Source of the DNA: Thermoanaerobaculia bacterium
GTDB taxonomy: Bacteria > Acidobacteriota > Thermoanaerobaculia > Multivoradales > JAGPDF01
Assembly: GCA_963806165.1 (NCBI GenBank)
Contig: CAWDWZ010000007.1
Coordinates: 1-64,000, forward strand
Length of the DNA stretch: 64,000 nt
Reading direction: 5' to 3'
Shown: piece by piece, positions 7,361 to 33,178 of the stretch
Layout of the letters: every line of letters begins with the position of its first letter
How positions within the stretch are numbered: position 1 is the stretch's first letter
Translations under genes and position numbers: made by a program
Notes under the pieces: generated by a model
The model's database searches: none
Told to the model about the DNA's origin: nothing
Seen by the model: the letters and a program-made list of their open reading frames with translations, nothing else

Positions 7361-7445
7361 CGGGAGGGGACACATAGCGGGGTCCGGAAGGTGCGCGGGA
7401 GTCGGGCAGTCTCGCCCCCGCAATGTGTCCCCAACGGGTGGCGAT
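7361..7445. repeat. Family-A palindromic repeat (GGGGACACAwAGCGGG-N~44-CCCGCAATGTGTCCCC)
   Basis: 16-bp arms form a long imperfect hairpin. Between the HNH gene and the RhuM gene. Confidence 0.7.
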
Positions 7446-7494
7446 GAGTCCCCGAGTTGCCAGATCATGAGAGGGGAATCCGTCCTTCCTGGAT

Positions 7495-8580
7495 ATGAAG
7501 AGCCCAGGAAGGGGAAGGCAGAAGTCCGATGCCGGGAAGGCGTCAGGAGCTCGAGGGAAGGCAAAGCGGACTGAGTCAGCTGTCGAGATCGCGAGCCGCG
7601 GCGAGGTACTGCTCTACGGGGAGCCCGACGGCGCCGTGCGGCTGGATGTTCGGCTCGAGAAGGAGACCGTCTGGCTCGACCTCAACCAGATCGCTGCGCT
7701 CTTCGAGCGCGACAAGTCGGTCATTTCAAGGCACTTGCGAGGCATCTTCGATTCGGGCGAACTGGATCGGGGGGCAACTGTTGCAAGAAATGCAACAGTT
7801 CAACGCGAGGGAGATCGAGAGGTCGTCCGCGACATCGAGTTCTTCAACCTCGATGCCATTCTCTCGGTCGGGTACCGGGTCAACTCCCGGCGCGGCACCC
7901 AGTTCCGGATCTGGGCGACACAGGTTCTTCGCGACCATCTGCTGCGGGGCTACACGGTCAACCAGCTGCGGCTGGACCAGCTCAACCAGGCCGTCCGCCT
8001 GATCGCCAGTACGGCGGATCGGCAGGATCTATCGGGGGACGAGGCCCGGGCGCTCCTGCGCGTGGTGGGCGAGTACAGCTTTGCGCTCGACCTGCTCGAC
8101 GACTATGACCACCAGCGGGTGGGCGTGGCGCCGCTGGGCGGGCGGCTGGTTCATCGGCTCGGGACGGAGGAGGCGCTGCGGATCGTCGAGCGCCTCCGGG
8201 AGCGGTTCGGCGCGGGGAGTCTGGTGGGGCGCCTGCGGGGCGACGGCCTGGACAGTGCCCTCGGTGCGGTCATGCAGTCGTTCGACGGCCAGGACCTCTA
8301 CCCGAGTCTCGAGGAGAAAGCCGCACACCTGCTGTACTTTCTGGTGAAAGACCACCCGTTCGTCGACGGCAACAAACGCATCGGCGCGGCGCTCTTTCTC
8401 TGGTTCCTGGAGAAGAACGGCGCGCTCGCGGGCCGCGGTGACGAGCGTCGCCTCTCGGATGCCGCTCTGGTCGCCCTGACCTTGCTGATCGCGGAGAGCA
8501 AGCCGGCCGAGAGGGATGTCGTTGTTCGAATCGTCACGCATCTTCTGATGGATCGGGCGGAAGCGGCGCGATCCTCTTGA
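7495..8580 (+). CDS. RhuM-family protein fused to a Fic/Doc (death-on-curing) domain
   Basis: RhuM motifs: ERDKSVISRHLRGIF, VGYRVNSRRGTQFRIWATQVLRDHL. C-terminal Fic/Doc motif HPFVDGNKRIGAALFLWFL. The real start may be a little downstream of 7495. Confidence 0.75.
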   Translation: MKSPGRGRQKSDAGKASGARGKAKRTESAVEIASRGEVLLYGEPDGAVRLDVRLEKETVWLDLNQIAALFERDKSVISRHLRGIFDSGELDRGATVARNATVQREGDREVVRDIEFFNLDAILSVGYRVNSRRGTQFRIWATQVLRDHLLRGYTVNQLRLDQLNQAVRLIASTADRQDLSGDEARALLRVVGEYSFALDLLDDYDHQRVGVAPLGGRLVHRLGTEEALRIVERLRERFGAGSLVGRLRGDGLDSALGAVMQSFDGQDLYPSLEEKAAHLLYFLVKDHPFVDGNKRIGAALFLWFLEKNGALAGRGDERRLSDAALVALTLLIAESKPAERDVVVRIVTHLLMDRAEAARSS

Positions 8581-8973
8581 CAAACATCTTGCCGAAGCCC
8601 ATACTCCGCCTCCGTTTTTGAACAGAGGAGCACACGTGCCACGCTGCGAACGAAATTCACTTAGCCATTCCGCTCCGAGGAACTTCCTCGGACAGACGGA
8701 TCTCCGCGCGCTGCAGGTTTGCGCGTTGGGATCTGTCACGGAGGCCGCTCTCTAGGGTTCGTTCGAATTGCGTTTCGACGCGACGAGCCTTCTGGGGAGC
8801 GATCCTCGGAAGGCTTTTTTGTTTTCCGGTCCTGTGAGACCGGTACTGCCCGGAGTGGAAGCGCCGGGAGGAGGGGAGATGTGTGCCGGGCCGCACGGCG
8901 GCGGGCGGGGAGACCCTGGAGCCCGCAAGTTCCGAGGCGGATTCGAAGCCGACACGCAGATCGAGCTTCCGCT

Positions 8974-9046
8974 AGATGGCTAGCTCAGTGGGTAGAGCAC
9001 CGAATGGAGAGTTCGGCTGTCGCGGGTTCGACTCCCGCGCCATCAC
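8974..9046 (+). tRNA. tRNA-like element with anomalies (pseudo-tRNA or indel-damaged tRNA); anticodon loop tGGAGAg
   Basis: Canonical D-arm gctcagtgggtagagc, T-arm gcgggttcgactcccgc, 6/7-bp acceptor stem (A:A at position 1-72). Anticodon stem ccgaa/ttcgg has G at position 33 and a GAG anticodon with a short variable arm. No CCA encoded. Confidence 0.35.
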
Positions 9047-9429
9047 AAAGCCGCCGAAAGGCGGCCCTGCAGGACCCGATCGCGGCGCGATGGGGATTGA
9101 ACTGCCGGTCTGACGTGCATTCTCGGAAGTCTCGACGTGCGCGGAACGGGCAACAAGGGTGGGCGCCCTGCGGCTCGGAAGGGAGAGTCTTCCGAACCGG
9201 CGGAGCGGCATCAGGGTGAAGGAGTGGGAGACGGCTTCCTCCTGCGACCTTCCCCCGTGTTTCTTCCGATGCCGCTCCGCCGGAGGTGGGGATTCGAATT
9301 CCGGGCTCCGCGTCCCATCGTGGGGCAGGCGGTTTCGGTCGCGTCGCTTTCGGTTGTGTTTCGAAGGCTTTGTTGCTGTCGATTTTCCTCGGACAGAAGG
9401 TTCGAGGGTAGCGAGAAGGGAGGTGCATC

Positions 9430-10587
9430 ATGTCGTTCCTGAAGTGGATTCGAGTGCAGTACGGACAGCGGGTCGTCGTGTACCGGGATGCGCAGCCGGT
9501 CGAGCTTCTGCGGCCGGGCCGCTACCTGCGGGTAGCGTTTGGCGGCGGGCTCGAGATCGAGCGCTTCTCGACGCGGGATCCGTGGGTGGCCACGCACATG
9601 CTGCCCGAGATCGTGCGGGCGGGGCTCCTCGAGGGTGAGGCGGTCGTGCTCGACCTGGTCGATCGGGAGCGGGCGATCGTGCGGATCGACGGCCGGTACG
9701 TTGGCGTGCGTGGCAAGGGAGTCTCGGCCGTGTGGACGGCGGAGCGCAAGGTCGAGGTCGAGCACTACGAGCTCGGGTTCGCTCTCTCGCCGTCGGGTGA
9801 GAAGGTTCCCGACGTCGAGAGCTTTCGGCTCGTCCACCCGTCGCTCGCCGTGATCGTCGAGCTGCCGGGCGCGAAGAACGAGCTCGACGTCGCCCTGGTT
9901 CCGGCCGGTTCGACCGGCCTGGTCTTTCGCGACGGCAAGCTGGTCGCGGAAATGGGTGAGCTCAGTCCGGGCCTCTTCGCGTTCTGGAAGGGTGCGGGCA
10001 AGTTTCAGGTGCTTGCCGTCGATCGGCGGGAGCAGGTGCTCGATGTCTCCGGTCAGGAGATCCTGACCGCGGACAAGGTGACCCTGCGGCTCAACGCGCT
10101 CGTCGTCTATCGCGTGGCGGATGCGGCTCTGGCGGTGACTACCGTCGAGTCGTACTCGCAGGCGCTCTACCGGCAGGCGCAGCTCGCGCTGCGGGCGGTC
10201 GTGGGCACGCGCGATCTCGAGACGTTTCTCGCCGGCAAAGACGAGGTCGTCCGCGAGCTCGAGCGAATGCTCGAGCTTCGGGCCGCCGAGCTCGGTCTCG
10301 AAGTGCGCGAGGCCGGTATCCGGGACGTCATCCTGCCGGGCGAGATGAAGGAGATCCTCAACCGGGTGGTCGAGGCGAAGAAGCGGGCGGAGGCGATGCT
10401 CCTCACGCGGCGGGAAGAGACCGCCGCGATGCGGATGCAGGCGAACACCGCGAAGATCTTCGAGTCGAGCCCGACGCTCATGAAGCTCAAGGAGCTCGAG
10501 GTCCTCGAGAAGGTGGCCGAGAAGGCCAACCTGACCGTGGTCCTGGGCGAGGGTGGGCTCTCGGAGCGCGTGATGAAGCTGGTGTAG
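9430..10587 (+). CDS. SPFH/band-7 (slipin-like) domain protein
   Basis: C-terminal half has the band-7 signature (EMKEILNRVVEAKKRAEAMLLTRREETAAMRMQANTAKI). Clean ORF with an RBS-like ggaggtg immediately upstream. Confidence 0.75.
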   Translation: MSFLKWIRVQYGQRVVVYRDAQPVELLRPGRYLRVAFGGGLEIERFSTRDPWVATHMLPEIVRAGLLEGEAVVLDLVDRERAIVRIDGRYVGVRGKGVSAVWTAERKVEVEHYELGFALSPSGEKVPDVESFRLVHPSLAVIVELPGAKNELDVALVPAGSTGLVFRDGKLVAEMGELSPGLFAFWKGAGKFQVLAVDRREQVLDVSGQEILTADKVTLRLNALVVYRVADAALAVTTVESYSQALYRQAQLALRAVVGTRDLETFLAGKDEVVRELERMLELRAAELGLEVREAGIRDVILPGEMKEILNRVVEAKKRAEAMLLTRREETAAMRMQANTAKIFESSPTLMKLKELEVLEKVAEKANLTVVLGEGGLSERVMKLV

Positions 10588-10672
10588 GGATTCGGCCTCC
10601 TCGGGTTCTCTCGAGGGGGCTTTTTTCTTGCGCTGGGTGTACCCTGTCCCGGTAGAGATCCCGGGAGGGGCC

Positions 10673-11320
10673 ATGCCGAAATCGCCCCGCTTCGCATCGA
10701 AGATTTTCGCGCTGCTGGCTCTCCTAGCAACTCCGGCCTTGGCGTCGGACGAAAAGACCGCGTCGCCTGAGCAGGTGACCATGGATCGCCTCCGCGTGCT
10801 CGCCGCCGCACTCCAGGCCTTTGTGAACGACGCGACATCCGGCGAGAATCGGCTGGAACGGGCACCGAGCGCCTGGGTACTCGCGAGCCAGCCTTCTGAG
10901 CTCGTCCGCATTCCACCGGGGAGCGAACTGCTGAGCTATCGCGAGCTCTTCGAGCTCTTAAATCCGCTCGAGGACGCCAGTTACCTGCGCGACATTCCCG
11001 AATACGACGGTTGGGGAAGGCGCATCGAGGTCTACTACTCGGAAGAAAAACTTCTCGCAGCGCGCGTCTTCAGCGTTCGCAGCCCGGGGGCGAACGGACG
11101 TTTCGACACCGATGTCTACGAGATCGGCGGGTTCCTTCCGGGGTCGGAAACGGACGATATCGTCATCGCAGACAAGCGCTTCGTTCGCTGGCCCTTGGGA
11201 ACGCCCGAGGCCGACCTCGCAGTGAAGCCCAGCGTTGGACCGGACTGGAATCGAATCAACAAAGTCGAGCCGGGCACAGGCGACCTGGGCGGCTGCTACA
11301 TCCCCCCAGCTCATCCCTGA
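10673..11320 (+). CDS. Secreted protein with a T2SS pseudopilin (GspG)-like globular domain but a Sec signal peptide
   Basis: Signal peptide MPKSPRFASKIFALLALLATPALA. GspG-like blocks: EQVTMDRLRVLAAALQAF..., DGWGRRIEVYY, SVRSPGANGRFDTDVYEIGGFLPG..DDIVIAD. No prepilin G/FTLIE leader. Confidence 0.5.
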   Translation: MPKSPRFASKIFALLALLATPALASDEKTASPEQVTMDRLRVLAAALQAFVNDATSGENRLERAPSAWVLASQPSELVRIPPGSELLSYRELFELLNPLEDASYLRDIPEYDGWGRRIEVYYSEEKLLAARVFSVRSPGANGRFDTDVYEIGGFLPGSETDDIVIADKRFVRWPLGTPEADLAVKPSVGPDWNRINKVEPGTGDLGGCYIPPAHP

Positions 11321-11559
11321 CGAGCGGGCCCCTACCGTCGGCGGCCACAAGGCGACCCGCCCGGATCCGGTGCGGTCTCTTTCAAAGAGGACGACTCGAT
11401 GCAGACCCAACGGCTCTTCCAGCGAATCCAGCAGGGGAAGCCTCACGCCGGTGTCGAGACGAGCCCGGCCGGCGCGGCGGTTAACGGCAAGTTTGTTTTC
11501 GATCCCTCGCAGGGTCTAACTCGGGTGTAACCTGTCTCTGCAGAGTTCCAGGATAAGTC

Positions 11560-12198
11560 ATGCCGATATCGCACCGCGTCGCATCGAAGGTCATCGCGTC
11601 GCTGGCGCTCTTCGCAACGCCGTCGTTGGCGGCGGACGGAAAGACCGCGTCACTGGAACAGGTGACGATGGATCGCCTCCGTGCTCTCGCCGGCGCTCTG
11701 CTGTCCCGTTATCAGGACGAAGTCTCGGGCGAGAACCGGATGGGCGCGCCGGCGAACGACTGGGTCTTCGCCAGTCAATCGTCGGATCTCATCCGAGTGC
11801 CCGACGTGAGGGCGTTGCGCTCCCGCAAGGGGGTCCTAGGGCTCCTGCGTCCCAGTGAGGACTTCATCTACCTTTGCGACGTGCCGGATCGCGATGCCTG
11901 GGGAGAGCGCATCGAGGTCTACTACGAGCAGGACAAGATCCTCTCCGCGCGTTTCCTCACCGTCCGCAGCGCCGGCGCGAATCGCCACTTCGACGCCGAT
12001 CGCTACGAGGTCGGCGGATTTCTTCCCGGAGCGGCAATCGACGACATCGTGATCGCCGACCAGCGGTTCGTGCGCTGGCCGCTGGGAGTCGCGGAGACGG
12101 AGCTTGAGGTGGAGCCGAAGATCGGAAGGTGCCCGGGCTTTGAGGACGGCTCGGGCGCGCACGCGGACGACGGCGGGGGAGCGGCGCCTGCGCAGTAG
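11560..12198 (+). CDS. Paralog of the 10673-11320 GspG-like secreted protein
   Basis: Signal peptide ...SLALFATPSLA. Same blocks: EQVTMDRLRALAGAL, WGERIEVYY, VRSAGANRHFDADRYEVGGFLPGAAIDDIVIADQRFVRWPLG. Confidence 0.5.
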   Translation: MPISHRVASKVIASLALFATPSLAADGKTASLEQVTMDRLRALAGALLSRYQDEVSGENRMGAPANDWVFASQSSDLIRVPDVRALRSRKGVLGLLRPSEDFIYLCDVPDRDAWGERIEVYYEQDKILSARFLTVRSAGANRHFDADRYEVGGFLPGAAIDDIVIADQRFVRWPLGVAETELEVEPKIGRCPGFEDGSGAHADDGGGAAPAQ

Positions 12199-12226
12199 GT
12201 AGGGGCGGGTCTCACTCCTCCCGGCG

Positions 12227-12321
12227 CGGGAGGGGACACCTGGCGGGTGGGGCAGGGACGCGCAGGCTCGGCGCTCGACTGCCCGCAAGGTGTCCCCAAC
12301 GGCCGGCAAGGTGTCCCCGAG
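12227..12321. repeat. Family-A palindromic repeat, right arm duplicated
   Basis: ggggacacctggcggg...cccgcaaggtgtcccc...caaggtgtcccc. Confidence 0.65.
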
Positions 12322-12435
12322 TGCAAGCGCCAGATGGAGGCCCCGGATTCCGTCTTTACGGAGCATGAAGAGTCCAAGTGCTGAGCGGCGGCGGGCTGCG
12401 GAGTATCCTTCTGCACGCAAGTTGCGTATAATGAA

Positions 12436-12780
12436 ATGAAGGCGGTCTTCGTTGAACTGCCCGCTTTCGCGCGGTATCGAGAGGAGTATCTCGGCGAGAA
12501 GGAGTTTCGCCGGCTGCAAGAGGCGTTGTTGACCAACCCTGCCGCTGGGGACCTGATCGCGGGGACAGGTGGGCTCCGGAAGTTGCGCTTCGGGGACGTG
12601 CGGCGGGGGAAGGGCAAGCGTGGGGGGCTGAGAGTTGTCTACTACTGGTGGGTAGCCGGGTCCCAGTTCTGGCTCTTCACCCTCTTCGACAAGGACGAGG
12701 CAATCGACTTGAGCCCTGAGCAGCGCACGTATCTGCGGGCGAGGATCAAGGCGGAGCTCGAGGCCAGGAGGAGCTCATGA
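12436..12780 (+). CDS. higB: HigB-2-like RelE/ParE-superfamily toxin
   Basis: Characteristic ...GTGGLRKLRFGDVRRGKGKRGGLRVVYYWW..QFWLFTLFDKDE. Overlaps the antitoxin start by 4 nt. Confidence 0.7.
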   Translation: MKAVFVELPAFARYREEYLGEKEFRRLQEALLTNPAAGDLIAGTGGLRKLRFGDVRRGKGKRGGLRVVYYWWVAGSQFWLFTLFDKDEAIDLSPEQRTYLRARIKAELEARRSS

Positions 12781-13121
12781 ACGAGGCAAAGACCGCAGTG
12801 CGGCGAGGCAAGAAACGCAAGCTCTTCGACGAGCTCGACGAAGGGCTCAAGGCGCTCGCCGAAAAGCGCCAGGGCAAGCGGACCCTCCGCAGCCACGAGG
12901 TCGAGATGAAACCGGCGCCGGAGGTCACTCCCCGCCAGCTCCTCGAGCTGCGCGAAGCGCTCAACCTCTCGCGCGCCCTGTTCGCCGTCTACTTGCGGAC
13001 CAACGTCCGCACCCTCGAGAACTGGGAACAGGGGCGCGCCAAGCCCAATGCGCAGGCGGCGCTCCTCATCCGACTCGTGCAGTGCTATCCCGACACCATG
13101 CAACGTCTCGCCGCTGTCTGA
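12777..13121 (+). CDS. higA: HigA-2-like XRE-family HTH antitoxin
   Basis: HTH block LLELREALNLSRALFAVYLRTNVRTLENWEQGRAKPNAQAALLIRLV. Translationally coupled to the toxin. Confidence 0.7.
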   Translation: MNEAKTAVRRGKKRKLFDELDEGLKALAEKRQGKRTLRSHEVEMKPAPEVTPRQLLELREALNLSRALFAVYLRTNVRTLENWEQGRAKPNAQAALLIRLVQCYPDTMQRLAAV

Positions 13122-13136
13122 CTGGGCCCCCAGCGC

Positions 13137-13210
13137 GGTAGGGGACACAAAGCGGGGCCGACCCGGCGGCGTGTTGTCTCATTTGCCGTGCCCCCGCATT
13201 GTGTCCCCGA
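13137..13210. repeat. Family-A palindromic repeat
   Basis: ggggacacaaagcgggg-N33-cccccgcattgtgtcccc, directly 3' of higA2. Confidence 0.7.
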
Positions 13211-13305
13211 ATGTGCCCGAGAACGGCCTGCTCCTCACGCTGATTTCGGCTGGGTTGGAGGCGGCGCTACAATCTCAAGTCGAAGCTCCTCGAGGAGGCT
13301 AGAGC

Positions 13306-13503
13306 GTGAGCCAACCAGCGACGACCGACAAGCAGCGGATGATTCGACTTCTCGAAGAGCAGCCGGACGACAGCACCTTCGAGGAGCTGCTCAAGGAGCT
13401 CGCATTCGATCGCATGGTCGAACGCGGCGTCGCTGACGCCGAGGCCGGACGAACCATCAGTCACAAGGAGATGGGCCGGAGAATCGCCTCTTGGGAGAAG
13501 TAA
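13306..13503 (+). CDS. Small addiction-module antitoxin component (ParD/TIGR02574-like)
   Basis: 65 aa, acidic, LLEEQPDDSTFEELLKELAFDRMVERGVADAEAGRTIS pattern typical of small antitoxins paired with ParE/RelE toxins. Confidence 0.45.
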   Translation: MSQPATTDKQRMIRLLEEQPDDSTFEELLKELAFDRMVERGVADAEAGRTISHKEMGRRIASWEK

Positions 13504-13601
13504 GGTGGACCGAGGAGGCCGCTGACCGGCTCCGCGAGATCCGCGACTACATCGCCAAACGCAACGCCCTCGACACCGAGCAGAGGCTCGCGGCGGTCTG
13601 A
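13491..13601 (+). pseudogene. Truncated ParE/RelE-family toxin remnant (N-terminal ~35 codons only)
   Basis: Frame encodes ...WTEEAADRLREIRDYIAKRNALDTEQRLAAV* which matches ParE N-termini, but stops after ~35 residues. Followed directly by a family-B palindrome. Confidence 0.4.
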
Positions 13602-13612
13602 GGGGTTGCGGA

Positions 13613-13645
13613 GGAAGAAGTCGGGGAGAGTCCCCATTTCCTCCC
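13613..13645. repeat. Family-B short palindrome (consensus GAAAAATGGGGAC-N1-3-GTCCCCATTTTC), degenerate copy
   Basis: gaagaagtcggggagagtccccatttcctccc. Confidence 0.5.
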
Positions 13646-13810
13646 TAAGCTCGTCTTGGCGCGCCAGAAGGCGCCTGCGAATTCCGTCTTTACCTTGGTA
13701 TGGATGTCTTAGCGGAAAAGTGGGCCCGTTGCGGAGTCGTTCCCGCGCTCGAGTCCGCCGTTGTTCGGATGACAAGTATTCCCAAATTGGGTACAATCGT
13801 TCCCATAATG

Positions 13811-14422
13811 GGAAAGTTACGAGAGAAGGCTCTGGGGAGTGGGTTGGCGGGGGCGCTATTCACGCCGGTGCAGCAGCGCGTGCTCGGGCTGCTCTTCGGG
13901 CAGCCGGAGCGGCGCTTTCGCAGCGGGGAGATCATCCGCTTGGCGGCGAGCGGGACGGGGGCGGTGCACCGCCAGTTGCAGCGGTTGGCGGCGGTGGATC
14001 TGGTCGAGGTGACCCGGGAGGGAAACCAGAAACACTATCGGGCGCGGCGCGAGTCGCCGATTTTCGCCGAGCTCCATGGGCTGATCGCGAAGACCGTCGG
14101 CATTGTCGATCCGCTGCGGCTGGCGCTCGCCCCGCTGGCCGGGAAGATCGAATTGGCGTTCGTCTTCGGCTCGATCGCCAAGGGAAGCGACACCGCGGCG
14201 AGCGATCTCGATCTTCTGGTGGTGAGCGAAGAGCTCGAATATGCCGAGGTCTATCAGGCGGTGGAGAAAGCTGAGCGCTTCCTGGCGCGGCCGGTGAATC
14301 CGACCGTCATGCGACCCGCGGAGTGGCGAGCGGCGCGGACGAGGCAGGACTCCTTCGCGTCGCGCATCGCCGAGCAGCCCAGGATCTTCGTCATCGGGAG
14401 CGAGGGAGCCGCGGGTGCCTAG
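13811..14422 (+). CDS. wHTH + minimal nucleotidyltransferase (MNT) antitoxin
   Basis: ELAFVFGSIAKGSDTAASDLDLLVV (GS..D.D nucleotidyltransferase motif) after a winged-helix N-terminus. The in-frame ORF starts at 13700; MGKLREK chosen as the likely start. Confidence 0.65.
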   Translation, partial: GKLREKALGSGLAGALFTPVQQRVLGLLFGQPERRFRSGEIIRLAASGTGAVHRQLQRLAAVDLVEVTREGNQKHYRARRESPIFAELHGLIAKTVGIVDPLRLALAPLAGKIELAFVFGSIAKGSDTAASDLDLLVVSEELEYAEVYQAVEKAERFLARPVNPTVMRPAEWRAARTRQDSFASRIAEQPRIFVIGSEGAAGA

Positions 14423-14849
14423 CCTTGAGCTCGATCGGCTGGTCGCCACTCGCGACCTACAGCGCGAGTCTGCGTCGAGGTCGGAGTTCGAGGGGCTTCT
14501 GCGCTCGGCGGAGGCGCGGCTCCAGGATGCGGAGAACGACCGGAACTCGATCGACAGCCGTTTCGACCTGGCCTACAACGCCGCACACGCACTGGCGCTC
14601 GCGGCGCTGCGTTGGCACGGCTACCGCCCGGTCAAACGCTACATCGTCTTTCCGGCGCTGGCGCACACGGTCGATCTCCCGCGCGAGAGCTGGCGCCTGC
14701 TTGCGAAGTGCCACGACCAGCGCAATCGCACCGAGTACGAGGGGCTGGCACCGATCGAGTCGGCACTCCTCGCGGGCCTCCTCGAGGTGACCCGGGAGTT
14801 GCTGGTGCGGGTGCGGGCACTGGCACCGCTGAGCATCCCGGACTCGTAG
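14415..14849 (+). CDS. HEPN-domain toxin partner of the MNT
   Basis: Overlaps the MNT stop. HEPN-like region ...KCHDQRNRTEYEG... . Confidence 0.55.
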   Translation: MPSLELDRLVATRDLQRESASRSEFEGLLRSAEARLQDAENDRNSIDSRFDLAYNAAHALALAALRWHGYRPVKRYIVFPALAHTVDLPRESWRLLAKCHDQRNRTEYEGLAPIESALLAGLLEVTRELLVRVRALAPLSIPDS

Positions 14850-14899
14850 GTACCGGGAAGACTCCTCTGGAGTCGAAGTGAGCCAGCCGCGAGCTCGCG

Positions 14900-14932
14900 A
14901 AGAAATCGGAAACAGTCCGCATTTCCTCCCGC
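14900..14932. repeat. Family-B palindrome, degenerate copy
   Basis: gaagaaatcggaaacagtccgcatttcctccc. Confidence 0.45.
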
Positions 14933-15042
14933 ACTGCCAGATTCGACCGACAGATCGCGTCTTACCTCTTTCGAGGGCAACGACCCGATGCGGATCGTGG
15001 AGGAAGACCAGCTTCCCCCAGCTTCCCGTGAAGGAGTGACCG

Positions 15043-15264
15043 ATGAAGGACTATCCCATCAACATCTTCTGGAGCGAGCCCGATGCGAGCTATGTCGCCG
15101 ACATTCCCGACCTCTTCCCCTGCACGGGTTTCGGCGCCACGCCGGAGCGGGCGCTCGCCGAGGTGATGCTCGCGCGGGAGGCGTGGCTCGAGACAGCGAA
15201 GGAGAACGGCTTGGCGTTTCCGGTAGCGATGTCGCGGTTGGATGCGGAGACGGGTGGGGGGTGA
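15043..15264 (+). CDS. HicB-like antitoxin-family small protein (no HicA seen)
   Basis: MKDYPINIFWSEPDASYVADIPDLFPCTGFGATPERALAEVMLAREAWLETAKENG resembles the HicB N-terminal domain. Confidence 0.5.
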   Translation: MKDYPINIFWSEPDASYVADIPDLFPCTGFGATPERALAEVMLAREAWLETAKENGLAFPVAMSRLDAETGGG

Positions 15265-15357
15265 GCGGCGCGCGGAGCGGTGCCCGGAATTGCTTGACAT
15301 CCAGAACGGATGCATAATGGAAACCGGACGGATCCATCAGATTCGGAAGGGGTTACC

Positions 15358-15603
15358 ATGGCGACGTTGACGCTGAAGAATGTGCCGGAAGCGCTGGTCG
15401 AGCGGCTGAAACGGGAGGCGAAGCAGAGCCGCCGAAGTCTGAATCAGGAGACGCTTGCGCGGCTCGAGGCGAGCCTGGCGACGCGCCGGCAGACCAGCGA
15501 GGAGAAGATCGCCATCATGCGGGAAGCCCACGCGCGTCTTGCGCACCTGCCGCCGATGACCGACGAGTTCCTCGACTTCGCCAAGCGCGACGGACGGCTT
15601 TGA
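15358..15603 (+). CDS. vapB: RHH (Arc/MetJ-type) VapB/FitA-like antitoxin
   Basis: MATLTLKNVPEALVERLKREAKQSRRSLNQETLARLEA. Stop overlaps the downstream TTG start (TTGA coupling). Confidence 0.65.
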   Translation: MATLTLKNVPEALVERLKREAKQSRRSLNQETLARLEASLATRRQTSEEKIAIMREAHARLAHLPPMTDEFLDFAKRDGRL

Positions 15604-16004
15604 TCGTCGTCGACACCAACCTGCTCGTCTACTCGGTCATTCCAGGCGAGAGCACGGCGCTGGCGCTTCGCGTCGCCGCAAGCGACGCCGACTGGATTGC
15701 CCCGTCTCTCTGGCGCCACGAGCTCGCCAACGCTCTGGCGACCGAGATGCGGGTGCGAGGGATGACGATGCGCGATGCCGTCATCGCTTTCTCCGCAGCC
15801 GAGCGTCTCGTGGTCGACGCGGAGCTCGCCCCCGGCCTCGAAACGAAGCTCGAGCTCGCCGCGCGCGGCAAGGTCTCGGCCTACGACGCCGAATTCGTCG
15901 CCCTGGCGCAGGAGCTCGACCTGCCGCTCGTCACCGCCGACCGGCGGCTGGCGCTGGCGTTTCCGGAAAGAGCGCGAGGGCTCGCCGAGTTCCTCGGCGA
16001 GTAG
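15600..16004 (+). CDS. vapC: PIN-domain VapC/FitB-like toxin
   Basis: IVVDTNLLVY..., acidic residues spaced as in PIN domains, C-terminal ...LVTADRRLA. Confidence 0.7.
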   Translation: MIVVDTNLLVYSVIPGESTALALRVAASDADWIAPSLWRHELANALATEMRVRGMTMRDAVIAFSAAERLVVDAELAPGLETKLELAARGKVSAYDAEFVALAQELDLPLVTADRRLALAFPERARGLAEFLGE

Positions 16005-16005
16005 G

Positions 16006-16094
16006 GGGAAATCGGGGACAGCCCCCATTCCTCGGGGACGGCTGGGAGAGGCGGGACGAACTCTCGAGAAATGGGAATAGTCCCCATTTCTTCC
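16006..16094. repeat. Two family-B palindromes ~35 bp apart
   Basis: gggaaatcggggacagcccccattcc ... gagaaatgggaatagtccccatttcttcc. Confidence 0.6.
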
Positions 16095-16144
16095 CCGGCT
16101 CACAAGGCCCTGTGGGTCTAGAATGTCGCCAAGGGAGGCGGACG

Positions 16145-16462
16145 ATGGGCCAGGGAGAGGCGCAGGTGCGCGCGCGAATGCCGGAGCTCACGGCGCTCTG
16201 TCGGCGTTTCGGCGTGCGTCGGCTCGAGCTCTTCGGGTCCGCTCTCCGCGCGGACTTCGACCCGGCGACGAGCGACCTCGATTTCCTCTTAGAGATCGAG
16301 CCGCCAACAGGCCTGGGCTACGCCGATGCCTACTTCGGCCTGCACGAGGGCCTCGAGCAGCTGTTCGGGAGAGCTGTCGATCTCGTCTCGATCGGAGCGG
16401 TCAAGAACCCCCACCTGCTGCAGGCCATCGAGCGTTCGAGGCGATCGCTCTATGCGGCTTGA
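16145..16462 (+). CDS. mntA: MNT antitoxin of a HepT/MNT pair (start ambiguous; 16178 also possible)
   Basis: RLELFGSALRADFDPATSDLDFLLE nucleotidyltransferase motif. Confidence 0.65.
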   Translation: MGQGEAQVRARMPELTALCRRFGVRRLELFGSALRADFDPATSDLDFLLEIEPPTGLGYADAYFGLHEGLEQLFGRAVDLVSIGAVKNPHLLQAIERSRRSLYAA

Positions 16463-16792
16463 GGCGCGGAAGCTGATCTGGGATGCGCGCGAGGCCGTTG
16501 CCAGGATCCAGGAGTTCACCACAGGAAGTCGCTGGAGGACTACGACGCTGACGCCCTGCTGAGCTCGGCGGTCGAGCGTCAGCTCGAGATCGTCGGCGAG
16601 GCGCTGCACCGTCTGTCCAGGCTCGATCCCGAGACGGCGGCGGGCATCGAAGGGATCTCCCGCATCGTCGGGATGAGAAATGTTCTCGCGCATGGCTACG
16701 CGACCATCGACAACCGGCTGGTATGGGATGTCGTTACGAGCAAGCTCCAGGGGCTCGCGGCGCAACTCGAAAGTCTGGCGCGCGAGGTCTGA
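16459..16792 (+). pseudogene. hepT: HepT (DUF86/HEPN) toxin interrupted by a 1-nt frameshift near 16525
   Basis: Frame 1: MRLEARKLIWDAREAVARIQEFTTG then stop. Frame 2 continues ...LEDYDADALLSSAVERQLEIVGEALHRLSRLDPETAAGIEGISRIVGMRNVLAHGYATIDNRLVWDVV... (Rx4HxY HEPN motif). Confidence 0.6.
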
Positions 16793-16806
16793 CTGGGCTT
16801 CAGTTC

Positions 16807-17507: not shown

Positions 17508-17522
17508 AGTGCGCGGAGCAAT

Positions 17523-17572
17523 AGCATCCCTTTGTGGGCTTATCCCACTGTGGGCTTATCCCACTGTGGGCT
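17523..17572. promoter_or_regulatory. Direct 16-bp repeats (tgtgggcttatcccac x2.5) upstream of the AbrB-type antitoxin; candidate operator
   Basis: ctttgtgggcttatcccactgtgggcttatcccactgtgggctga sits immediately 5' of the 17507 start on the minus strand. Confidence 0.4.
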
Positions 17573-17584
17573 GAACAGAGAGTG

Positions 17585-17612: not shown

Positions 17613-17633
17613 TGCCATCTGGAGAATGGTGGC

Positions 17634-23563: not shown

Positions 23564-23630
23564 AGGGGACACAAAGCGGGGCGACCGGCGTCGTGCTGGT
23601 CGCGACTCTCTGCCCCCGCATTGTGTCCCC
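23564..23630. repeat. Family-A palindromic repeat
   Basis: ggggacacaaagcgggg-N30-cccccgcattgtgtcccc, between convergent/divergent genes. Confidence 0.7.
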
Positions 23631-30797: not shown

Positions 30798-30866
30798 GAG
30801 GGGACACAATGCGCGGGCCAGCTTTAACGCGGCTCGCAGATCGGGTCGCCCGCGAATTGTGTCCCC
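30798..30866. repeat. Family-A palindromic repeat
   Basis: ggggacacaatgcgcggg-N30-cccgcgaattgtgtcccc. Confidence 0.7.
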
Positions 30867-30876: not shown

Positions 30877-32247
30877 TCAGGTTTGTCGGCGGCGCATCCG
30901 CGTAAGGGCCGCGGCACCCAATCCGCCCGCCAGAAGCACCAGGCCCAACGGCCCCAGGGCTGGCACCTCGACGGCCGAGCCGCCCGCGGTCTCGTAAGCG
31001 CCGATATCCACCGCCGTCCCCTGGATGCGCGCGACACCGTCCAGGTCGCCCGCGATGTCGCCGGGGACCTGCGCGCTGTTGCCGGCGTTTCTCGCCGGGC
31101 TGCTCAACTGCAGATGAAAGTCGTTCGCACCCACGAACCGCGGATCGGTGAACAGGGTGCCCGGTCCGGCGATGAAGTTCTCGCTGCCGTTGCCAAAGAC
31201 GAGATTGTGGTCGTTGGTGAAGGTGGCCTCGAAGCCGGGCTCGACGGAGATGCCGACGTTGGTGTTACCGGCGACGATGTTGTTCGCCAGGACGCCGGTG
31301 ACTGTCGCTCCGAGGTCGCCCCGTGCGCTCTCCGTGATGCCGTCCGCGCCGTTGGCGATCGTGTTGTTGACGACGGTGAAGGTGCCGTCGCCCTGGCTGA
31401 CGTTGAGCGCGATGCCTCCCGGCTGTCCGGCGACGCTGATCTGCCCGCCGCGCAGGAGGTTGTTGACGACCCGTGCCGTGAGCGACCCGCCAGGCGCGAA
31501 CTGAAAGACGAAGATGCCGTTGTTGAAACCCTGACCGCTGATGTCGTTGGCCAGGAGGTCGACGCTCAGGACGTGGATGCCGTTGAAGGCCCCGATCACC
31601 GCGTTCTGGGTCGATTCACCGGTCTGGACGATCACGTTGCCGGCGACCCGGCCGCTGGCGTCGCTCTCGAAGGCGCCGACCGAGATCGCGCCGATCTGGT
31701 CGCCGGCGCTGAAGCCGTCCACCGTGATCCGGTTGTCGGAGACGTCGAAAGTCACTGGACCGTAGGGCGGTTGGGTGTTGCCGCTGTAGATCTCGACCGC
31801 CGTGCCGAAGCTGAAGGTGTCGAGGATGACGTTGTTGCGAAAGGTGACATCGAAGGCGCCCACGCCGCCCTGCACTCCGAGGAAGCGGCCGTTGGCGATC
31901 GTCAATCCCTCCACCACGATCGTGGCCGGCGCGGCGCCGCCGAAGGCGAAGATGCTGTTGGGCGAGATGAAGACGGGCGTGAAGCCGGCCGCGGCACGCA
32001 GCGTGAGGCTCTTGTCGTCGATCTGCGGCGTTTCGTCGATCGGACCGTCGGTGGCGATCTCGACGATGTCGCCGGCGGCAGCGGCGTCGATGCAGGCCTG
32101 CAGCGTCCCGGCGCAGCCCGCCGAGGGCCAGGTGGCGGCGGAGAGCGGGCAAGCGGCGACCGCCGCGACCAGCACCGCGAGGCAGAGTCGAGTTCTTGCG
32201 TCGAGCGCTGCCTTCGCCTTCGTCGTGAATTCGTTCCACTTTCTCAT
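30877..32247 (-). CDS. Right-handed parallel beta-helix repeat protein with a PEP-CTERM-like tail (VPALGPLGLVLLAGGLGAAALTRMRRRQT)
   Basis: Signal peptide. Repeated NN(V/I)(I/V)xxN beta-helix rungs. C-terminus has a TM helix plus an Arg cluster. Confidence 0.65.
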   Translation of the reverse strand: MRKWNEFTTKAKAALDARTRLCLAVLVAAVAACPLSAATWPSAGCAGTLQACIDAAAAGDIVEIATDGPIDETPQIDDKSLTLRAAAGFTPVFISPNSIFAFGGAAPATIVVEGLTIANGRFLGVQGGVGAFDVTFRNNVILDTFSFGTAVEIYSGNTQPPYGPVTFDVSDNRITVDGFSAGDQIGAISVGAFESDASGRVAGNVIVQTGESTQNAVIGAFNGIHVLSVDLLANDISGQGFNNGIFVFQFAPGGSLTARVVNNLLRGGQISVAGQPGGIALNVSQGDGTFTVVNNTIANGADGITESARGDLGATVTGVLANNIVAGNTNVGISVEPGFEATFTNDHNLVFGNGSENFIAGPGTLFTDPRFVGANDFHLQLSSPARNAGNSAQVPGDIAGDLDGVARIQGTAVDIGAYETAGGSAVEVPALGPLGLVLLAGGLGAAALTRMRRRQT

Positions 32248-32262
32248 GTCCGGAGCCCTCTC

Positions 32263-33030
32263 TCAGTTTCTAGCGACGCGACAGTATAGCCGGACCGTCC
32301 GCTTCAACCTCTCCGGCAGCACCGCCAGCACCTCCGGATCGAGGCCGAGCGCCCAGTGGCAGGAGGTCGCTTCGAGGTTGCTGGCGCCGGGGGTCGTGCT
32401 GTCGACGGCGGCCTGCCAGGCGACGATGCCGTCACGGCGGCTCCAGATCGCGGTCACCGGAACTCGGATCGGGATCTCGTTCGCGGCGCCGACGAGGCGG
32501 TCGATCTCCTCGATATCCCAACCCTGGATGCGGTAGAAGCCGGCGATCGCGGTATGGCGGAGACCGCCGACGACCGGACTGCCGAGCGTGACGACCGCCC
32601 GCACGAGGTCGGGGCGCAAGCGCGCGAGCTCGCGCGCCAGCACGCCGCCAAGGCTCCAGCCGACGAGCGCGACCGGCGACCGCGTCTCAAGGACGAGCGC
32701 TTCGAGGCGCGGCAGGAGGCGCGCGAGCGTCGCCGCGGCGTCGGGCGGATTGCGGCCCAGCCCCCAGCCGCGCGCGTCGAAGCCGTGCCGGCGGAGATAG
32801 CGGCGGAGCGGGCGCGTCGAGAAGTCGCCGACCCCCATGCCCGGAAAGACGAGCACCAGCTCGCCCTCGCCGCGCGGCGCGGCGGCCACCTCGCCGCGGA
32901 GGCGAGGGTCGAATCGCCGCCAGAGCTCGCGGAAGATCAAGAGTTGCAGGACGAGCGCGCCCAAGAGCGTCGGCGGTCGCGCCGGGAGCGCCGGCGCGGG
33001 GGTGCCGGCGGGCCAGAGCGCAAGGGGCAT
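32263..33030 (-). CDS. Alpha/beta hydrolase (lipase/esterase-like, GWSLGG nucleophile elbow)
   Basis: LVGWSLGGVLARELA motif. Clean ORF. Confidence 0.6.
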   Translation of the reverse strand: MPLALWPAGTPAPALPARPPTLLGALVLQLLIFRELWRRFDPRLRGEVAAAPRGEGELVLVFPGMGVGDFSTRPLRRYLRRHGFDARGWGLGRNPPDAAATLARLLPRLEALVLETRSPVALVGWSLGGVLARELARLRPDLVRAVVTLGSPVVGGLRHTAIAGFYRIQGWDIEEIDRLVGAANEIPIRVPVTAIWSRRDGIVAWQAAVDSTTPGASNLEATSCHWALGLDPEVLAVLPERLKRTVRLYCRVARN

Positions 33031-33054
33031 CGCGCTCAGGCTAACAGGGGACGA

Positions 33055-33178
33055 GCGGGAGGGGACACATCGCGCGGGGCCTCGCCGTCAAGGTGTCCCT
33101 CCAAGGTGTCCCTCCAAGGTGTCCCTCCAACGTGTCCCTCCAAGGTGTCCCTCCAACGTGTCCCTCCAACGTGTCCCC
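33055..33178. repeat. Family-A repeat whose right arm is tandemly amplified (13-mer aaggtgtccctcc x ~7, 33089-33178)
   Basis: Left arm ggggacacatcgcgcgggg, then aaggtgtccctcc / aacgtgtccctcc units ending ...gtgtcccc. Confidence 0.7.

Follow-up and report, generated by a model that had tools for sequence, protein, structure and literature searches.

A predicted hairpin repeat at the junctions of a hypervariable defence island in Acidobacteriota

An imperfect palindrome recurs between the genes of a 64,000-nucleotide stretch of a Thermoanaerobaculia contig (hereafter the window, meaning the whole stretch analysed), which raises the question of what kind of element it is and why its copies lie where they do. 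A reading made from the letters alone (the sequence-only reading) had counted eight intergenic copies of 70–100 bp with simply complementary arms, and had grouped them with REP/BIME/MITE-like elements or recombination sites.

Results

The repeat family in the window

The repeat family proved to be real: 16 arm matches to GGGGACACAWNGCG (1 mismatch allowed) were found in the window compared with 0.26 expected, a number reached in 0 of 100 shuffles. A covariance model built from 61 copies recovered all eight proposed copies between 7366 and 33178, seven as complete elements and one as a degenerate element. All of them lie on the + strand, which outscored the − strand by 25–40 bits for every window copy, and all are indeed intergenic, each placed between GC3-supported ORFs. 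From 34 to 64 kb the model found no clear extra copy, the best other match (39230–39318) scoring 19.4 bits with an E value of 0.019.

The palindrome measured 66–68 nt, shorter than had been proposed, with 17-nt arms around a loop that is fixed in length (32–34 nt) and variable in sequence. The arms form an outer stem of 10 bp (GGGGACACAW/WTGTGTCCCC) and an inner stem of 5–7 bp (GCGGG/CCCGC), and they are not simply complementary: arm position 11 carries an A·A (rarely G·A) mismatch in 61 of 61 aligned copies. This conserved mismatch fixes the polarity of the element and points to its recognition as a folded single strand. The flanks are also conserved and asymmetric, reading GCGCGG(K)A 5′ of the palindrome and (A/G)AC 3′ of it, and neither AAC/GTT boxes, target-site duplications nor a U-tract were found at the elements.

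Element 1 (7366..7432, subtype A, arms GGGGACACATAGCGGGG / CCCCGCAATGTGTCCCC, loop 33 nt) is preceded by the 5′ flank GCGCGGGA (7358–7365), scores 72.9 bits on the + strand and 36.0 on the − strand, and has a predicted DNA fold of −27.1 kcal/mol (z −3.8). Element 2 (12232..12297, 71.7 bits, arms GGGGACACCTGGCGGG / CCCGCAAGGTGTCCCC) is a variant of subtype A with a change at position 9 of each arm and a G·A mismatch. The best score in the window, 76.2 bits, belongs to element 4 (17636..17702, subtype A), whose loop includes GGCGGGGTCGCGAAG, as it does in relatives, and which matches 10 or more elements of related arrays. Element 4 sits in a divergent intergenic region. Elements 3 (13141..13208, arms GGGGACACAAAGCGGGG / CCCCGCATTGTGTCCCC, 5′ flank GCGCGGTA, 69.8 bits, z −3.8) and 5 (18618..18685, 68.2 bits, z −5.7) are of subtype C, were both detected as repeat D13, and are 87% identical over the whole element. 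Element 6 (23565..23630, 62.4 bits, z −5.1) shares their arm subtype and is only 74–75% identical to them, so that of three loops described as near-identical two remain. It lies just past a Ser/Thr-kinase gene and is antisense to local transcription, because both of its neighbours are minus-strand genes.

Element 7 (30800..30866, subtype D, arms GGGGACACAATGCGCGG / CCGCGAATTGTGTCCCC, 36.5 bits, z −3.9) has its mismatch displaced by one position and lies between convergent genes; its orthologous site in the relative C is a tandem GTGTCCCCGTGAC repeat. The degenerate element 8 (33061..33178, 19 bits) has an intact left arm (33061–33079), but where the right arm would be the 13-mer CAAGGTGTCCCTC is repeated 6.8 times in tandem (33089–33177), which bears out the roughly sevenfold amplification noted earlier. 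A metagenome contig, L077, has an intact element at the orthologous position.

Folding and the case for DNA

The predicted fold was 3.4–5.7 standard deviations better than shuffles in six of the seven full copies, while element 2, folded with its extra arm, reached a z of only −1.6. At stem positions left free by the search pattern, pair changes were two-sided (4, 8, 3 and 28 sequences) and never one-sided, with Watson-Crick pairs only, and 99.6% of the cells were paired compared with 28–54% when the partner was slid. No G·U (G·T) pair occurred among 915 stem cells though two-sided changes were frequent, and this lack of G·T intermediates argues for DNA rather than RNA. The conservation of the arms across genera, alongside drifting loops, points to a sequence-specific reader.

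Both results weigh against the idea that the hairpins are cis-acting RNA elements (3′-UTR stabilisers, RNase III or processing sites, or insulators) repeated only through duplication or exchange of cassettes, which we consider unlikely. Stable stems would suit such a role, as would gene context: in 51 of 56 scorable contexts the element adjoins the 3′ end of a gene, only 5 being divergent promoter regions, the 5′-side gene is co-oriented with the element in 40, and a downstream motif stops a few bases before start codons, so that the unit fills the intergenic space. However, the elements lack a U-tract and were passed over by a terminator scan that canonical terminators elsewhere in the region satisfied, no Rfam family matched, and three of the eight copies in the window lie antisense to local transcription or outside it, with their genomic orientation unchanged. 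An RNA role also leaves the duplicated arm ends and 13-mer arrays described below unexplained. Element orientation agreed with local GC skew by 51:18, a ratio that gene orientation confounds, as does the fact that copies in one array are not independent.

Distribution in other genomes

The element also occurs elsewhere in related genomes, so the sequence-only reading is not refuted on that count. In 70 genome loci, the 66–68 nt form came almost wholly from Thermoanaerobaculia/Acidobacteriota metagenome-assembled genomes (MAGs), with roughly 20–30 copies per genome in Thermoanaerobaculia MAGs and 24 and 18 exact-pattern copies in the two best assemblies; 39 further metagenome contigs carried it and viral contigs did not. 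A large share of the copies is concentrated in one array, and others occur singly across the core genome or in tandem with no ORF between them. The element matched no named repeat family and was absent from the searched literature. Judged by these sequences, the repeat is specific to an uncultured group of Acidobacteriota.

A shuffled defence island

Elements 1–5 lie inside a hypervariable toxin-antitoxin and defence island (1918..21356, + strand). By Pfam, its genes include a truncated hsdR, AIPR, HNH, RhuM-Fic, tRNA-Leu, Band7 and an HTH protein, together with an MNT-type nucleotidyltransferase, a HicB-like protein, RHH-PIN, a MazE-like protein and MOSC. Island modules recur in shuffled order in the related genomes C and J at 67–90% nucleotide identity (most 71–87%), and collinearity with both resumes only from the kinase gene (21357–23546) next to element 6. 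The arrays of C and J both terminate at this same gene, bordering its far (left) side. Co-orientation is strict, with 13 of 13 elements in 33 kb of J (binomial p = 0.0002) and 8 of 8 in the window (p = 0.008), and the array elements of C are also co-oriented. The window copies are strictly co-oriented junctions of a hypervariable cassette island, a result that goes beyond the sequence-only reading.

The cargo of the arrays consists of toxin-antitoxin and defence genes. Some "cassettes" reach 4.8 kb with several operons, and the MOSC gene has elements of different subtypes after it, or no element at all, depending on the genome. In J, a single PLD-helicase-DUF3427 gene is represented by pieces, each with elements at its borders, gene fragments begin directly at elements, and about 100 codons are absent where the helicase gene is interrupted.

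Exchange inside the hairpin

Junctions were compared by identity in 20-nt sliding windows. Units sharing the upstream gene were 75–100% identical over a stretch that starts at the conserved left motif, crosses the hairpin and runs some 40 nt further, and then dropped to 35–45%. Units sharing the downstream gene showed 25–60% identity upstream, except for the conserved left motif (up to 85%), and were mostly 90% or more identical from the 5′ foot of the hairpin onward, with loop windows at 80–85%. The left flank therefore travels with the gene before the element and the right flank with the gene after it, which places the exchange inside the hairpin. Two loci, L038 and L091, are apparent recombinants with crossovers in the loop (base-level alignments, judged by eye), and their crossover positions differ, as is easier to reconcile with exchange by homologous recombination or template switching than with a dedicated site-specific enzyme. 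Ends of homology blocks were enriched near elements (46% vs 23%), an enrichment confounded because block ends and elements are both tied to gene ends. No empty site was found.

Extra right-arm ends accompany the hairpins. The duplications reported in two copies are present after element 2 (GGCAAGGTGTCCCC, 12305..12318, + strand) and element 4 (TTGCCCGCAATGTGTCCTC, 17714..17732, + strand), and a shorter, partial end, GATGAGTCCCC, lies 10 nt downstream of element 1 (7443..7453, + strand); the same motif follows the intact element-8 orthologue in L077. Such ends were found downstream of 31 of 116 copies and upstream of 11 of 116 (p = 0.001), and the arm terminus also forms tandem arrays, with a repeat unit of about 13 nt (10–13 in L081), at six or more independent loci. 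Further downstream, a conserved H3 motif, GCCAGAT-N-GGAATCCGTCCTTCC (7459..7489, + strand), follows element 1 and stops 5 nt before the ATG (7495) of the RhuM-Fic gene, and an H3-type motif, GCCAGATGGAGGCCCCGGATTCCGTCTTTAC (12329..12359, + strand), follows element 2; in relatives, the H3 motif stays with the downstream gene. The element is also found in relatives within BIME-like mosaics and within a nested palindrome of 165–190 nt. The outer ends of a 165-nt unit read GAGACGG/CCGTCTT.

Search for a mobilising enzyme

About 700 kb around some 140 copies was searched with IntI1 and IS200 TnpA sequences and with a RAYT C-terminal motif. No tyrosine recombinase was matched there, bar one weak hit in L031 (E = 0.0045), and the 4–7 kb around the first element contained none, either in the window or in J. 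The TnpA probe matched no IS200-type Y1 transposase, nor did the RAYT motif find a match, RAYT being too distant from the TnpA probe for exclusion. The array ORFs included no transposase or recombinase families, nothing connected the elements with a phage integrase or an IS110-type enzyme, and a crude scan of 1–40 kb for RYYYAAC...GTTRRRY returned nothing. The copies thus do not form an attC set with an integrase.

These results bear on the possibility that the repeats are non-canonical attC-like sites, at which a recombinase encoded elsewhere or at the array end would read the folded strand and move gene-plus-hairpin cassettes, and the purine-purine mismatch would select the strand as extrahelical bases do in attC. 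Much of the locus resembles this arrangement: co-oriented arrays, mostly short same-strand toxin-antitoxin and defence ORFs with an element after each, which is also the layout of sedentary chromosomal integrons, cassette order shuffled between genomes, a left flank that goes with the upstream gene and a right flank with the downstream one, and an imperfect palindrome with conserved asymmetry and a variable loop. Integrase-free attC clusters (CALIN) are moreover common in genomes (PMC4889954). Yet besides the missing recombinase, there is neither the conserved AAC/GTT triplet nor the layout of R/L boxes, the two mapped crossovers lie at unlike positions, gene fragments start straight at elements, the MOSC gene changes or loses its element, tandem elements lack ORFs, and the largest units hold several operons, so we regard attC-like sites as improbable.

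Still less probable is a MITE, a deletion derivative of a DDE-type insertion sequence moved by a transposase in trans with either the 16-nt arms or the GAGACGG/CCGTCTT ends as terminal inverted repeats: inverted ends, small size, many unrelated locations, subfamilies of near-identical copies and a once continuous gene bounded in pieces would fit, but neither candidate boundary shows a target-site duplication, the flanks are asymmetric and conserved instead of variable, the ~700 kb contain neither a full-length element nor a transposase gene with such ends, a conserved internal mismatch and strict co-orientation are unexpected for cut-and-paste MITEs, and the lost helicase codons exclude a simple insertion.

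Discussion

On our best reading the repeat is new, and its closest known kind is REP/REPIN/BIME. We see about even chances that it is a lineage-specific, hairpin-forming extragenic element of this likeness that serves as the junction for recombination in an integron-like cassette island. The class first proposed thus survives in part: the copies are extragenic, recur in relatives, join BIME-like mosaics and take part in recombination, but a strict MITE is unsupported because target-site duplications are absent, and a typical REP because the copies number tens, not hundreds, with a large share in one array.

According to this explanation, the copies would join the gene modules of a toxin-antitoxin and phage-defence cassette island, and exchanges within the hairpin would reassort these modules between genomes. 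We infer that the element acts as a folded single DNA strand, which would form most easily on the lagging-strand template, the + strand here. A structure-specific enzyme from elsewhere in the genome (HUH/RAYT-like or a tyrosine recombinase) may nick and join it; or it may stall replication and lead to template switching or short-homology recombination between copies. Duplicated right-arm ends and 13-nt tandem arrays would then arise as by-products when such events recur at the 3′ foot of the hairpin.

Compared with the REP/REPIN/BIME systems of Enterobacteria and Pseudomonas (REPIN features from PMC3337134), the repeat is likewise a short extragenic imperfect palindrome with a predicted single-strand hairpin and two inverted arms, whose spacer drifts while the hairpin is kept. 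Both lie mostly downstream of genes and in mosaic clusters with other motifs, have no target duplications, and carry a purine-rich G-N-A-G immediately 5′ of the stem, which here applies to most copies in the window. In contrast to REPs, the arms are not themselves palindromic, copy number is lower and clustered, orientation within the array is strict instead of alternating, the purine-purine mismatch is conserved, the elements are junctions of shuffled gene cassettes, and no RAYT gene was detected beside any copy with probes weak for RAYT.

With attC sites, sedentary chromosomal integrons and CALIN (attC features from PMC4889954), the elements share co-oriented imperfect palindromes between short, mostly one-strand ORFs, cargo rich in toxin-antitoxin and defence genes, variable cassette order between related genomes, a chimeric site with each side linked to its neighbouring gene, an asymmetric unpaired feature that marks one strand, and a variable terminal loop. 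They differ in that neither an integron integrase nor an attI site was found here, AAC/GTT triplets and R/L boxes with extrahelical bases are missing, the crossover position is not fixed in the two mapped cases, and elements also bound gene fragments and are scattered across the core genome, singly or as tandems without ORFs.

The Neisseria dRS3/RS intergenic mosaic and Correia elements are unrelated in sequence and lineage, and are direct repeats or MITEs with target duplications. Nevertheless, in these and in REP-mediated rearrangements of enterobacteria, short repeats cluster in variable islands and serve as portable recombination sites that exchange cassette-like segments, a likeness shared by the elements described here.

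Copies, folding and polarity of the hairpin element

When the window was searched with the arm pattern GGGGACACAWNGCG, allowing one mismatch, 16 matches were obtained against 0.26 expected, and no shuffle got to 16. Using a covariance model built on 61 copies together with direct site reading, we defined seven complete elements, all on the + strand, at 7366-7432, 12232-12297, 13141-13208, 17636-17702, 18618-18685, 23565-23630 and 30800-30866 (elements 1 to 7, respectively). Element 8, on the same strand, is degenerate: past an intact left arm (33061-33079), the 13-mer CAAGGTGTCCCTC is repeated in tandem 6.8 times (33089-33177). The repeat family proposed by the sequence-only reading is therefore real, with the roughly sevenfold amplification of a right-arm 13-mer that it described. 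The duplicated right arms that it reported after elements 2 and 4 are also present, and a shorter duplicate follows element 1. Its length of 70-100 bp needs correction, as the elements measure 66-68 nt, with 17-nt arms and a loop of 32-34 nt, and its three near-identical loops come down to those of elements 3 and 5 (elements 87% identical), since element 6, of the same arm subtype, is 74-75% identical to both. The covariance model gave no clear additional copy in 34-64 kb, the best other match being 19.4 bits (E 0.019) at 39230-39318. At every window copy the + strand beat the - strand by 25-40 bits, so the element is polar, and the polarity is common to all eight copies.

The element is an imperfect palindrome repeated outside genes, in which two inverted arms enclose a spacer that preserves the hairpin; taken singly, the 16-17 nt arms are not palindromic. 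The arms (GGGGACACAW.GCGGG) show one mismatch and lack bulged bases. Conservation extends into the flanks, which are asymmetric: 5' of the element they read GCGCGG(G/T)A in the window and GGCGYGGC(G)A in relatives, and 3' of it (A/G)AC. When folded as single-stranded DNA, the full window copies other than element 2 (six of seven) were 3.4-5.7 sd better than shuffles; element 2, folded with its extra arm, reached a z of -1.6 only.

In the 61-copy alignment, stem positions left free by the search pattern act as base pairs. At four stem positions, changes (in 4, 8, 3 and 28 sequences) always involved both sides, and 99.6% of cells were paired, compared with 28-54% when the partner column was slid by 1-3. 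Left-arm position 11 (A, sometimes G) stands opposite a right-arm A in 61 of 61 sequences, a mismatch that the search pattern does not force and that is purine-purine on the + strand and pyrimidine-pyrimidine on the other. Since copying one arm from the other would erase it, this conserved mismatch implies selection on the folded form, read strand-specifically. G·T(U) intermediates were absent from all 915 cells, so a DNA hairpin fits better than an RNA hairpin. A purely RNA-level role of the hairpins is a rival reading that we consider improbable.

Distribution in other genomes and databases

With both arms fixed (GGGGACACNNNGCG...CGCNNNGTGTCCCC), scanning of one genome per species yielded 70 loci, so the element recurs well beyond the window; 39 short metagenome contigs matched an oriented pattern of greater stringency. 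The 66-68 nt form came almost entirely from Thermoanaerobaculia/Acidobacteriota MAGs, whose conserved genes are mostly 70-90% identical to those of the window at the nucleotide level, which indicates that the window comes from an organism related to them. The two best assemblies hold 24 and 18 exact-pattern copies, to which the covariance model adds about 15%, and at least a quarter to half of these copies sit in one array. No Rfam family matched at gathering thresholds, nor at E-values up to 5 on 7-34 kb, and the arm sequences were not found in the literature searched, so the element matches no named family in these sources; the sequence-only reading had likewise not recognised the consensus. 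That literature also held nothing tying Thermoanaerobaculia to integrons. The element pattern matched no viral contig and 7-24 kb had no megablast match to phage records, and a phage or plasmid origin was rejected.

The remaining genome matches fall in at least eight other phyla, and about 19 of these 26 loci hold a perfect palindrome of 27 nt (GGGGACACSWTGCSGCAWSGTGTCCCC) that has its outer stem in common with the main element and that we treat as a different object and a separate observation; it might be a related mobile family or a convergent terminator stem. Its form, GGGGACAC(G/C)(A/T)TGC(G/C)GCA(T/A)(C/G)GTGTCCCC, is near-identical across MAGs labelled Syntrophales, Elusimicrobia, Poribacteria, Proteobacteria and others (loci L006, L016, L017, L019, L022, L023, L036, L042, L044, L048, L050, L051, L057, L060, L061, L067 and L070). 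The same 13-bp stem occurs across phyla, usually with AT-rich palindromic flanks and often with an extra half-copy. At L019, two copies flank a HigBA-type toxin-antitoxin operon; cross-phylum transfer of this cassette with its hairpin was rejected, the protein identity of about 50-57% being too low.

The defence island of the window

The window is chromosomal and opens with tRNA, 5S rRNA and 16S rRNA genes, past which the G+C content is 65-72%, with a dip to 59% at 4-6 kb, and the GC skew is steadily positive. The layout of window 1-4368 is unusual, as the tRNA (1-70), 5S (91-207) and 16S (421-1917) are not followed by a 23S; a type I restriction R-subunit gene lies directly 3' of the 16S, its N-terminal part missing and its SWI2/SNF2 domain starting from about nt 2038. 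Either the island edge has truly been rearranged or the assembly was joined at an rRNA gene.

Between about 2 and 21 kb, this N-terminally truncated R subunit is accompanied by AIPR, HNH, RhuM-Fic, tRNA-Leu, Band7, HTH, MNT-type nucleotidyltransferase and HicB-like genes, an RHH-PIN pair, and genes for MazE-like and MOSC proteins, and the region is a toxin-antitoxin and defence island. A ribosomal-protein cluster at 9-16 kb was considered and rejected, Pfam giving toxin-antitoxin and defence genes there instead. From 21 kb on, ordinary chromosomal genes follow (a Ser/Thr kinase with TPR repeats, a SpoIIE phosphatase, a multihaem cytochrome and others). Among 40 window proteins, Pfam detected no integrase or transposase domain.

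Several other features of the window were recorded. The tRNA-Leu(GAG) gene of the island (8974-9046), with RhuM-Fic on one side and Band7 on the other, may once have served as an integration target. Two paralogous tandem genes (10628-11320 and 11560-12198), which code for 230 and 212 aa without a Pfam family and are 71-73% identical in nucleotides, recur as a pair in the arrays of C and J, two related genomes described below, and in those of L026, L032 and L054, and the N-termini of the C homologues appear signal-peptide-like. A 67-nt stretch at 13049-13115, coding for the C-terminus of the HTH protein (12777-13121), is repeated with 93% identity at 19241-19307, the end of ORF 18648-19325, where a GC3 frame change near 19230 suggests a fused or frameshifted remnant beside element 5. 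A second repeat family, the short palindrome GAAATGGGGAC(A/T)GTCCCCATTTC with an A-tract and a T-tract, lies at 13614-13645, 14899-14930, 16008-16094, 17581-17612 and 21305-21336 and looks like a bidirectional terminator. It has the GGGGAC stem start in common with the main family, and at 16008-16094 two of its palindromes form a unit of about 90 nt that is found three times in C. Farther on, an in-frame tandem repeat at 49210-50160 (period 27/54 nt, about 35 copies, 66-69% matches) lies within ORF 48962-50332 and encodes an Ala/Pro/Leu-rich repeat protein, and repeats of about 143 nt at 58390-60214 code a tandem ...ELW..DGT... motif, probably of a beta-propeller or FG-GAP-like repeat protein.

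Cassette-like arrays in related genomes

By joining neighbouring loci, the array regions of two related genomes were assembled, C (24 kb of CAWBFZ010000002.1) and J (40 kb of JANNGS010000018.1). Modules of window 7-20 kb recur in both in a different order, at 67-90% nucleotide identity (most 71-87%). Both arrays end at the kinase gene, and from this gene on C is again collinear with the window. J carries 13 elements in 33 kb in a single orientation, and C carries 6-9 in 13.6 kb. Their ORFs are mostly short and on the same strand as the elements, with an element 35-100 nt behind. The Pfam families found (CopG, HI1420/Gp49, ParE, HicA, FitA, AbiEii, MNT, Fic, PLD-helicase-DUF3427, DUF499, Bro-N and ADP-ribosylglycohydrolase) are toxin-antitoxin and defence functions, and no transposase or recombinase family was detected by Pfam among the C and J array ORFs. 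At the kinase-side array border, L004 (CAWBFZ010000001.1:1-8000) overlaps L027 and L039 (CAWBFZ010000002.1) of the same MAG over 8 kb at 96.3% identity, so the bin holds two strains or haplotypes of this border.

Within contexts that are non-independent inside arrays, at least one gene 3' end adjoined the element in 51 of 56 scorable cases, the 5'-side gene was co-oriented with it in 40, and divergent promoter regions made up five. Element orientation agreed with the local GC skew 51 times and disagreed 18 times, an agreement confounded by gene orientation; elements 6, 7 and 8 are + oriented even though the genes around them lie on the - strand or converge. An intrinsic terminator, with its GC-rich stem, short loop and U-tract, was rejected as the identity of the element, as there is no T-tract, the 3' flank being (A/G)AC, and a terminator scan skips the elements while calling canonical terminators nearby.

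A larger unit, mosaics and arm-end tandems

In relatives, subtype A elements are nested in an imperfect palindrome of 165-190 nt with three parts: a left motif GYTRGAGACGGGGCGG, the 67-nt hairpin, and a right motif AAMTGCYGGCGCCAGATG-N10-GGATTCCGTCYTT that stops a few bases 5' of the next start codon. In the consensus fold of this unit, GAGACGG pairs with CCGTCTT and CTGGCG with CGCCAG. Of 52 occurrences of the left motif, 45 are followed by a hairpin within 60 nt. In the window, the right motif is retained at copies 1 (7459-7489) and 2 (12329-12359), where the left motif survives in traces only. The distances of the left, loop and right parts correlate weakly (rho 0.12-0.32) and are uninformative alone. 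Inspected by eye, the right motif gave no support for a sigma-70, sigma-54 or ECF promoter, and a promoter scan calls none there.

Subtype B elements of relatives are dispersed in the core genome, where they form part of mosaics that also include another long palindrome and additional motifs, an organisation that recalls BIMEs. Such mosaics (L045:1700-2700, L020:1400-2400, L047:4300-5200, L037:3600-4500 and L004:5700-6400) contain the long palindrome GGCGCTCGGGATCTTGGGGTCGGC...GCCGGCCCCAAGATCCCGAGTGCC, the motif GCTCGGGGTCCTGTCTGG and 13-nt left-arm-end tandems (GGGACACGTTGGC x3; GGACACACACGGA x3).

An extra right-arm terminus (..GTCCC) was present within 70 nt downstream of 31 of 116 elements and upstream of 11 (p = 0.001). 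Independent loci also carry the arm terminus in tandem, repeating about every 13 nt (every 10-13 nt in L081): window element 8, the C site orthologous to window element 7, L039 and L081, and, in a mirrored left-arm form, L047 and L004. Since the metagenome contig L077 holds an intact element at the site orthologous to window element 8, the tandem array in the window is the derived state.

Exchange between modules inside the hairpin

Units that share an upstream gene and have different downstream genes (e.g. L038 vs L007, L012 and L091) showed 75-100% identity in 20-nt sliding windows over the conserved left motif, the hairpin and about 40 nt past it, and then 35-45%. Units that share a downstream gene and have different upstream genes (L038 vs L072 and L041; L091 vs L026) showed 25-60% identity upstream, where the conserved left motif, unlike the rest, reached up to 85%, and mostly at least 90% from the hairpin 5' foot on, with loop windows at 80-85%. 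According to these profiles, the left flank goes with the upstream module and the right flank with the downstream module, which puts the module junction within the shared hairpin. In base-level alignments read by eye, the partner switch lies at the loop centre in L038 and at the left arm/loop boundary in L091, so the two mapped crossovers do not share one fixed nucleotide (n=2).

A single PLD-helicase-DUF3427 gene occurs in J as separate pieces, each of which has elements at its borders, with about 100 codons absent between pieces, and the junction of an element with the helicase from motif II (DEFHH) is present twice; elements can thus border gene fragments and not whole cassettes alone. The fragments (L007/L041/L049) lie at reverse-complement coordinates 3107-6219, 13724-14239, 15201-15707 and 17729-18175. 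Ends of homology blocks were significantly enriched near elements (46% vs 23%), a figure confounded by gene ends. Flank-joining revealed no empty site, and the regions orthologous to elements 6 and 7 are too diverged for indel ends.

Search for associated enzymes

About 700 kb around elements was searched by phmmer with IntI1 and IS200 TnpA probes, and with a regular-expression motif. REP/REPIN sequences have a cognate RAYT (HUH/Y1) gene in single copy, which they typically flank. Neither a match to the IS200 probe, which is distant from RAYTs, nor a Y-x3-NP-type motif was found in 109 loci or the window, and the RAYT gene that the sequence-only reading had proposed to look for was detected beside no copy with these probes. 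Pfam found no integron integrase in window 1-7.4 kb or J 1-4 kb, and the IntI1 probe found none in the loci apart from one marginal tyrosine-recombinase-like match (L031:5672-6133, E = 0.0045), 1.3 kb from a subtype B element on JANNGS010000014.1. All-against-all clustering of flanking ORFs gave no recurrent enzyme, mostly synteny and spurious ORFs spanning the repeat.

Interpretation and comparison with known systems

The reading that we put forward, and to which we give about an even chance, is that of a REP/REPIN/BIME-like hairpin repeat acting as folded single-stranded DNA and serving as the recombination junction of a cassette-like defence island. Folding would be easiest on the lagging-strand template, here the + strand. 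By one route, a structure-specific enzyme encoded elsewhere might nick and join at the hairpin foot, which would account for the amplified arm ends as well as for the polarity and the conserved mismatch. By another, the hairpin might stall replication and lead to template switching or short-homology exchange between copies, which would explain the scattered crossovers and gene fragments.

A true integron-like site-specific system with an unrecognised recombinase would share with integrons the co-oriented sites and the variable cassette order, and we consider it improbable. An IntI gene with attI beside the first cassette is a feature of integrons, though not required for CALIN. The attC site is marked by an AAC/GTT triplet and by R and L boxes with bulged bases (PMC4889954). 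An unpaired central spacer is a further feature of attC. The triplet and the bulged boxes are absent from the arms, a crude scan for the attC consensus gave zero sites, and an integron integrase was found neither in the 4-7 kb next to the first element nor in the loci searched; canonical attC sites were thus rejected, and with them an attC set with its integrase, which the sequence-only reading had named as grounds for refutation. It would be something of a long shot that the hairpins are the sites of an undescribed Acidobacteriota cassette-capture system, integron-like, with sites folded from a single strand, polarity set by the mismatch and co-oriented toxin-antitoxin and defence cassettes, a different site sequence and a non-IntI recombinase or nuclease encoded away from the array. 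A MITE is very unlikely, as inverted ends are present but target-site duplications and a parent element are not. The earlier description as REP/BIME/MITE-like elements or recombination sites accordingly stands for the extragenic palindrome, the BIME-like mosaics and the exchange within the hairpin, and not for a strict MITE.

To our knowledge, integrons are so far the sole well-understood bacterial route to stockpile and reshuffle promoterless gene cassettes, and sedentary integrons are now regarded as stores of toxin-antitoxin and anti-phage genes. The integron-like architecture of the present uncultured Acidobacteriota lineage (co-oriented structured repeats, shuffled order and exchange in the repeat) comes without an integron integrase or attC signature. 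Should a dedicated enzyme exist, this would be a second, independent solution to cassette capture and of high interest; should there be none, it would show clearly how REP-like hairpins serve as portable recombination junctions in the build-up of defence islands. The covariance model and consensus offer a handle for locating such islands in metagenomes, and the conserved mismatch leads to a testable prediction on strand-specific recognition.

Structured extragenic repeats and cassette arrays are of a known kind, while the family, its lineage, the mismatch-defined polarity and the junction role in an integrase-less, integron-like toxin-antitoxin and defence array are undescribed in the sources searched. 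A hallmark of REP/REPIN sequences is a GTAG-type tetranucleotide at the hairpin 5' foot; G(G/T)AG overlaps the first stem G in five of the eight window copies, and relatives have GCGA, GGCA or TTCC before GGGG. Like REP/REPIN sequences, whose typical features with RAYTs were taken from PMC3337134, the element is an extragenic imperfect palindrome with two inverted arms and a spacer. It differs in that its 16-17 nt arms are not palindromic themselves and in its copy number, 24 and 18 by exact pattern in the best two assemblies against hundreds dispersed per genome. A typical REPIN population was rejected, as the copies are in the tens, clustered and co-oriented, with no RAYT detected beside any. 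As in integrons and CALIN, at least two co-oriented sites separate ORFs, and cassette order varies between genomes. An integron attC has one fixed exchange position; exchange here takes place within the hairpin, and the two crossovers that could be mapped are at different places (n=2).
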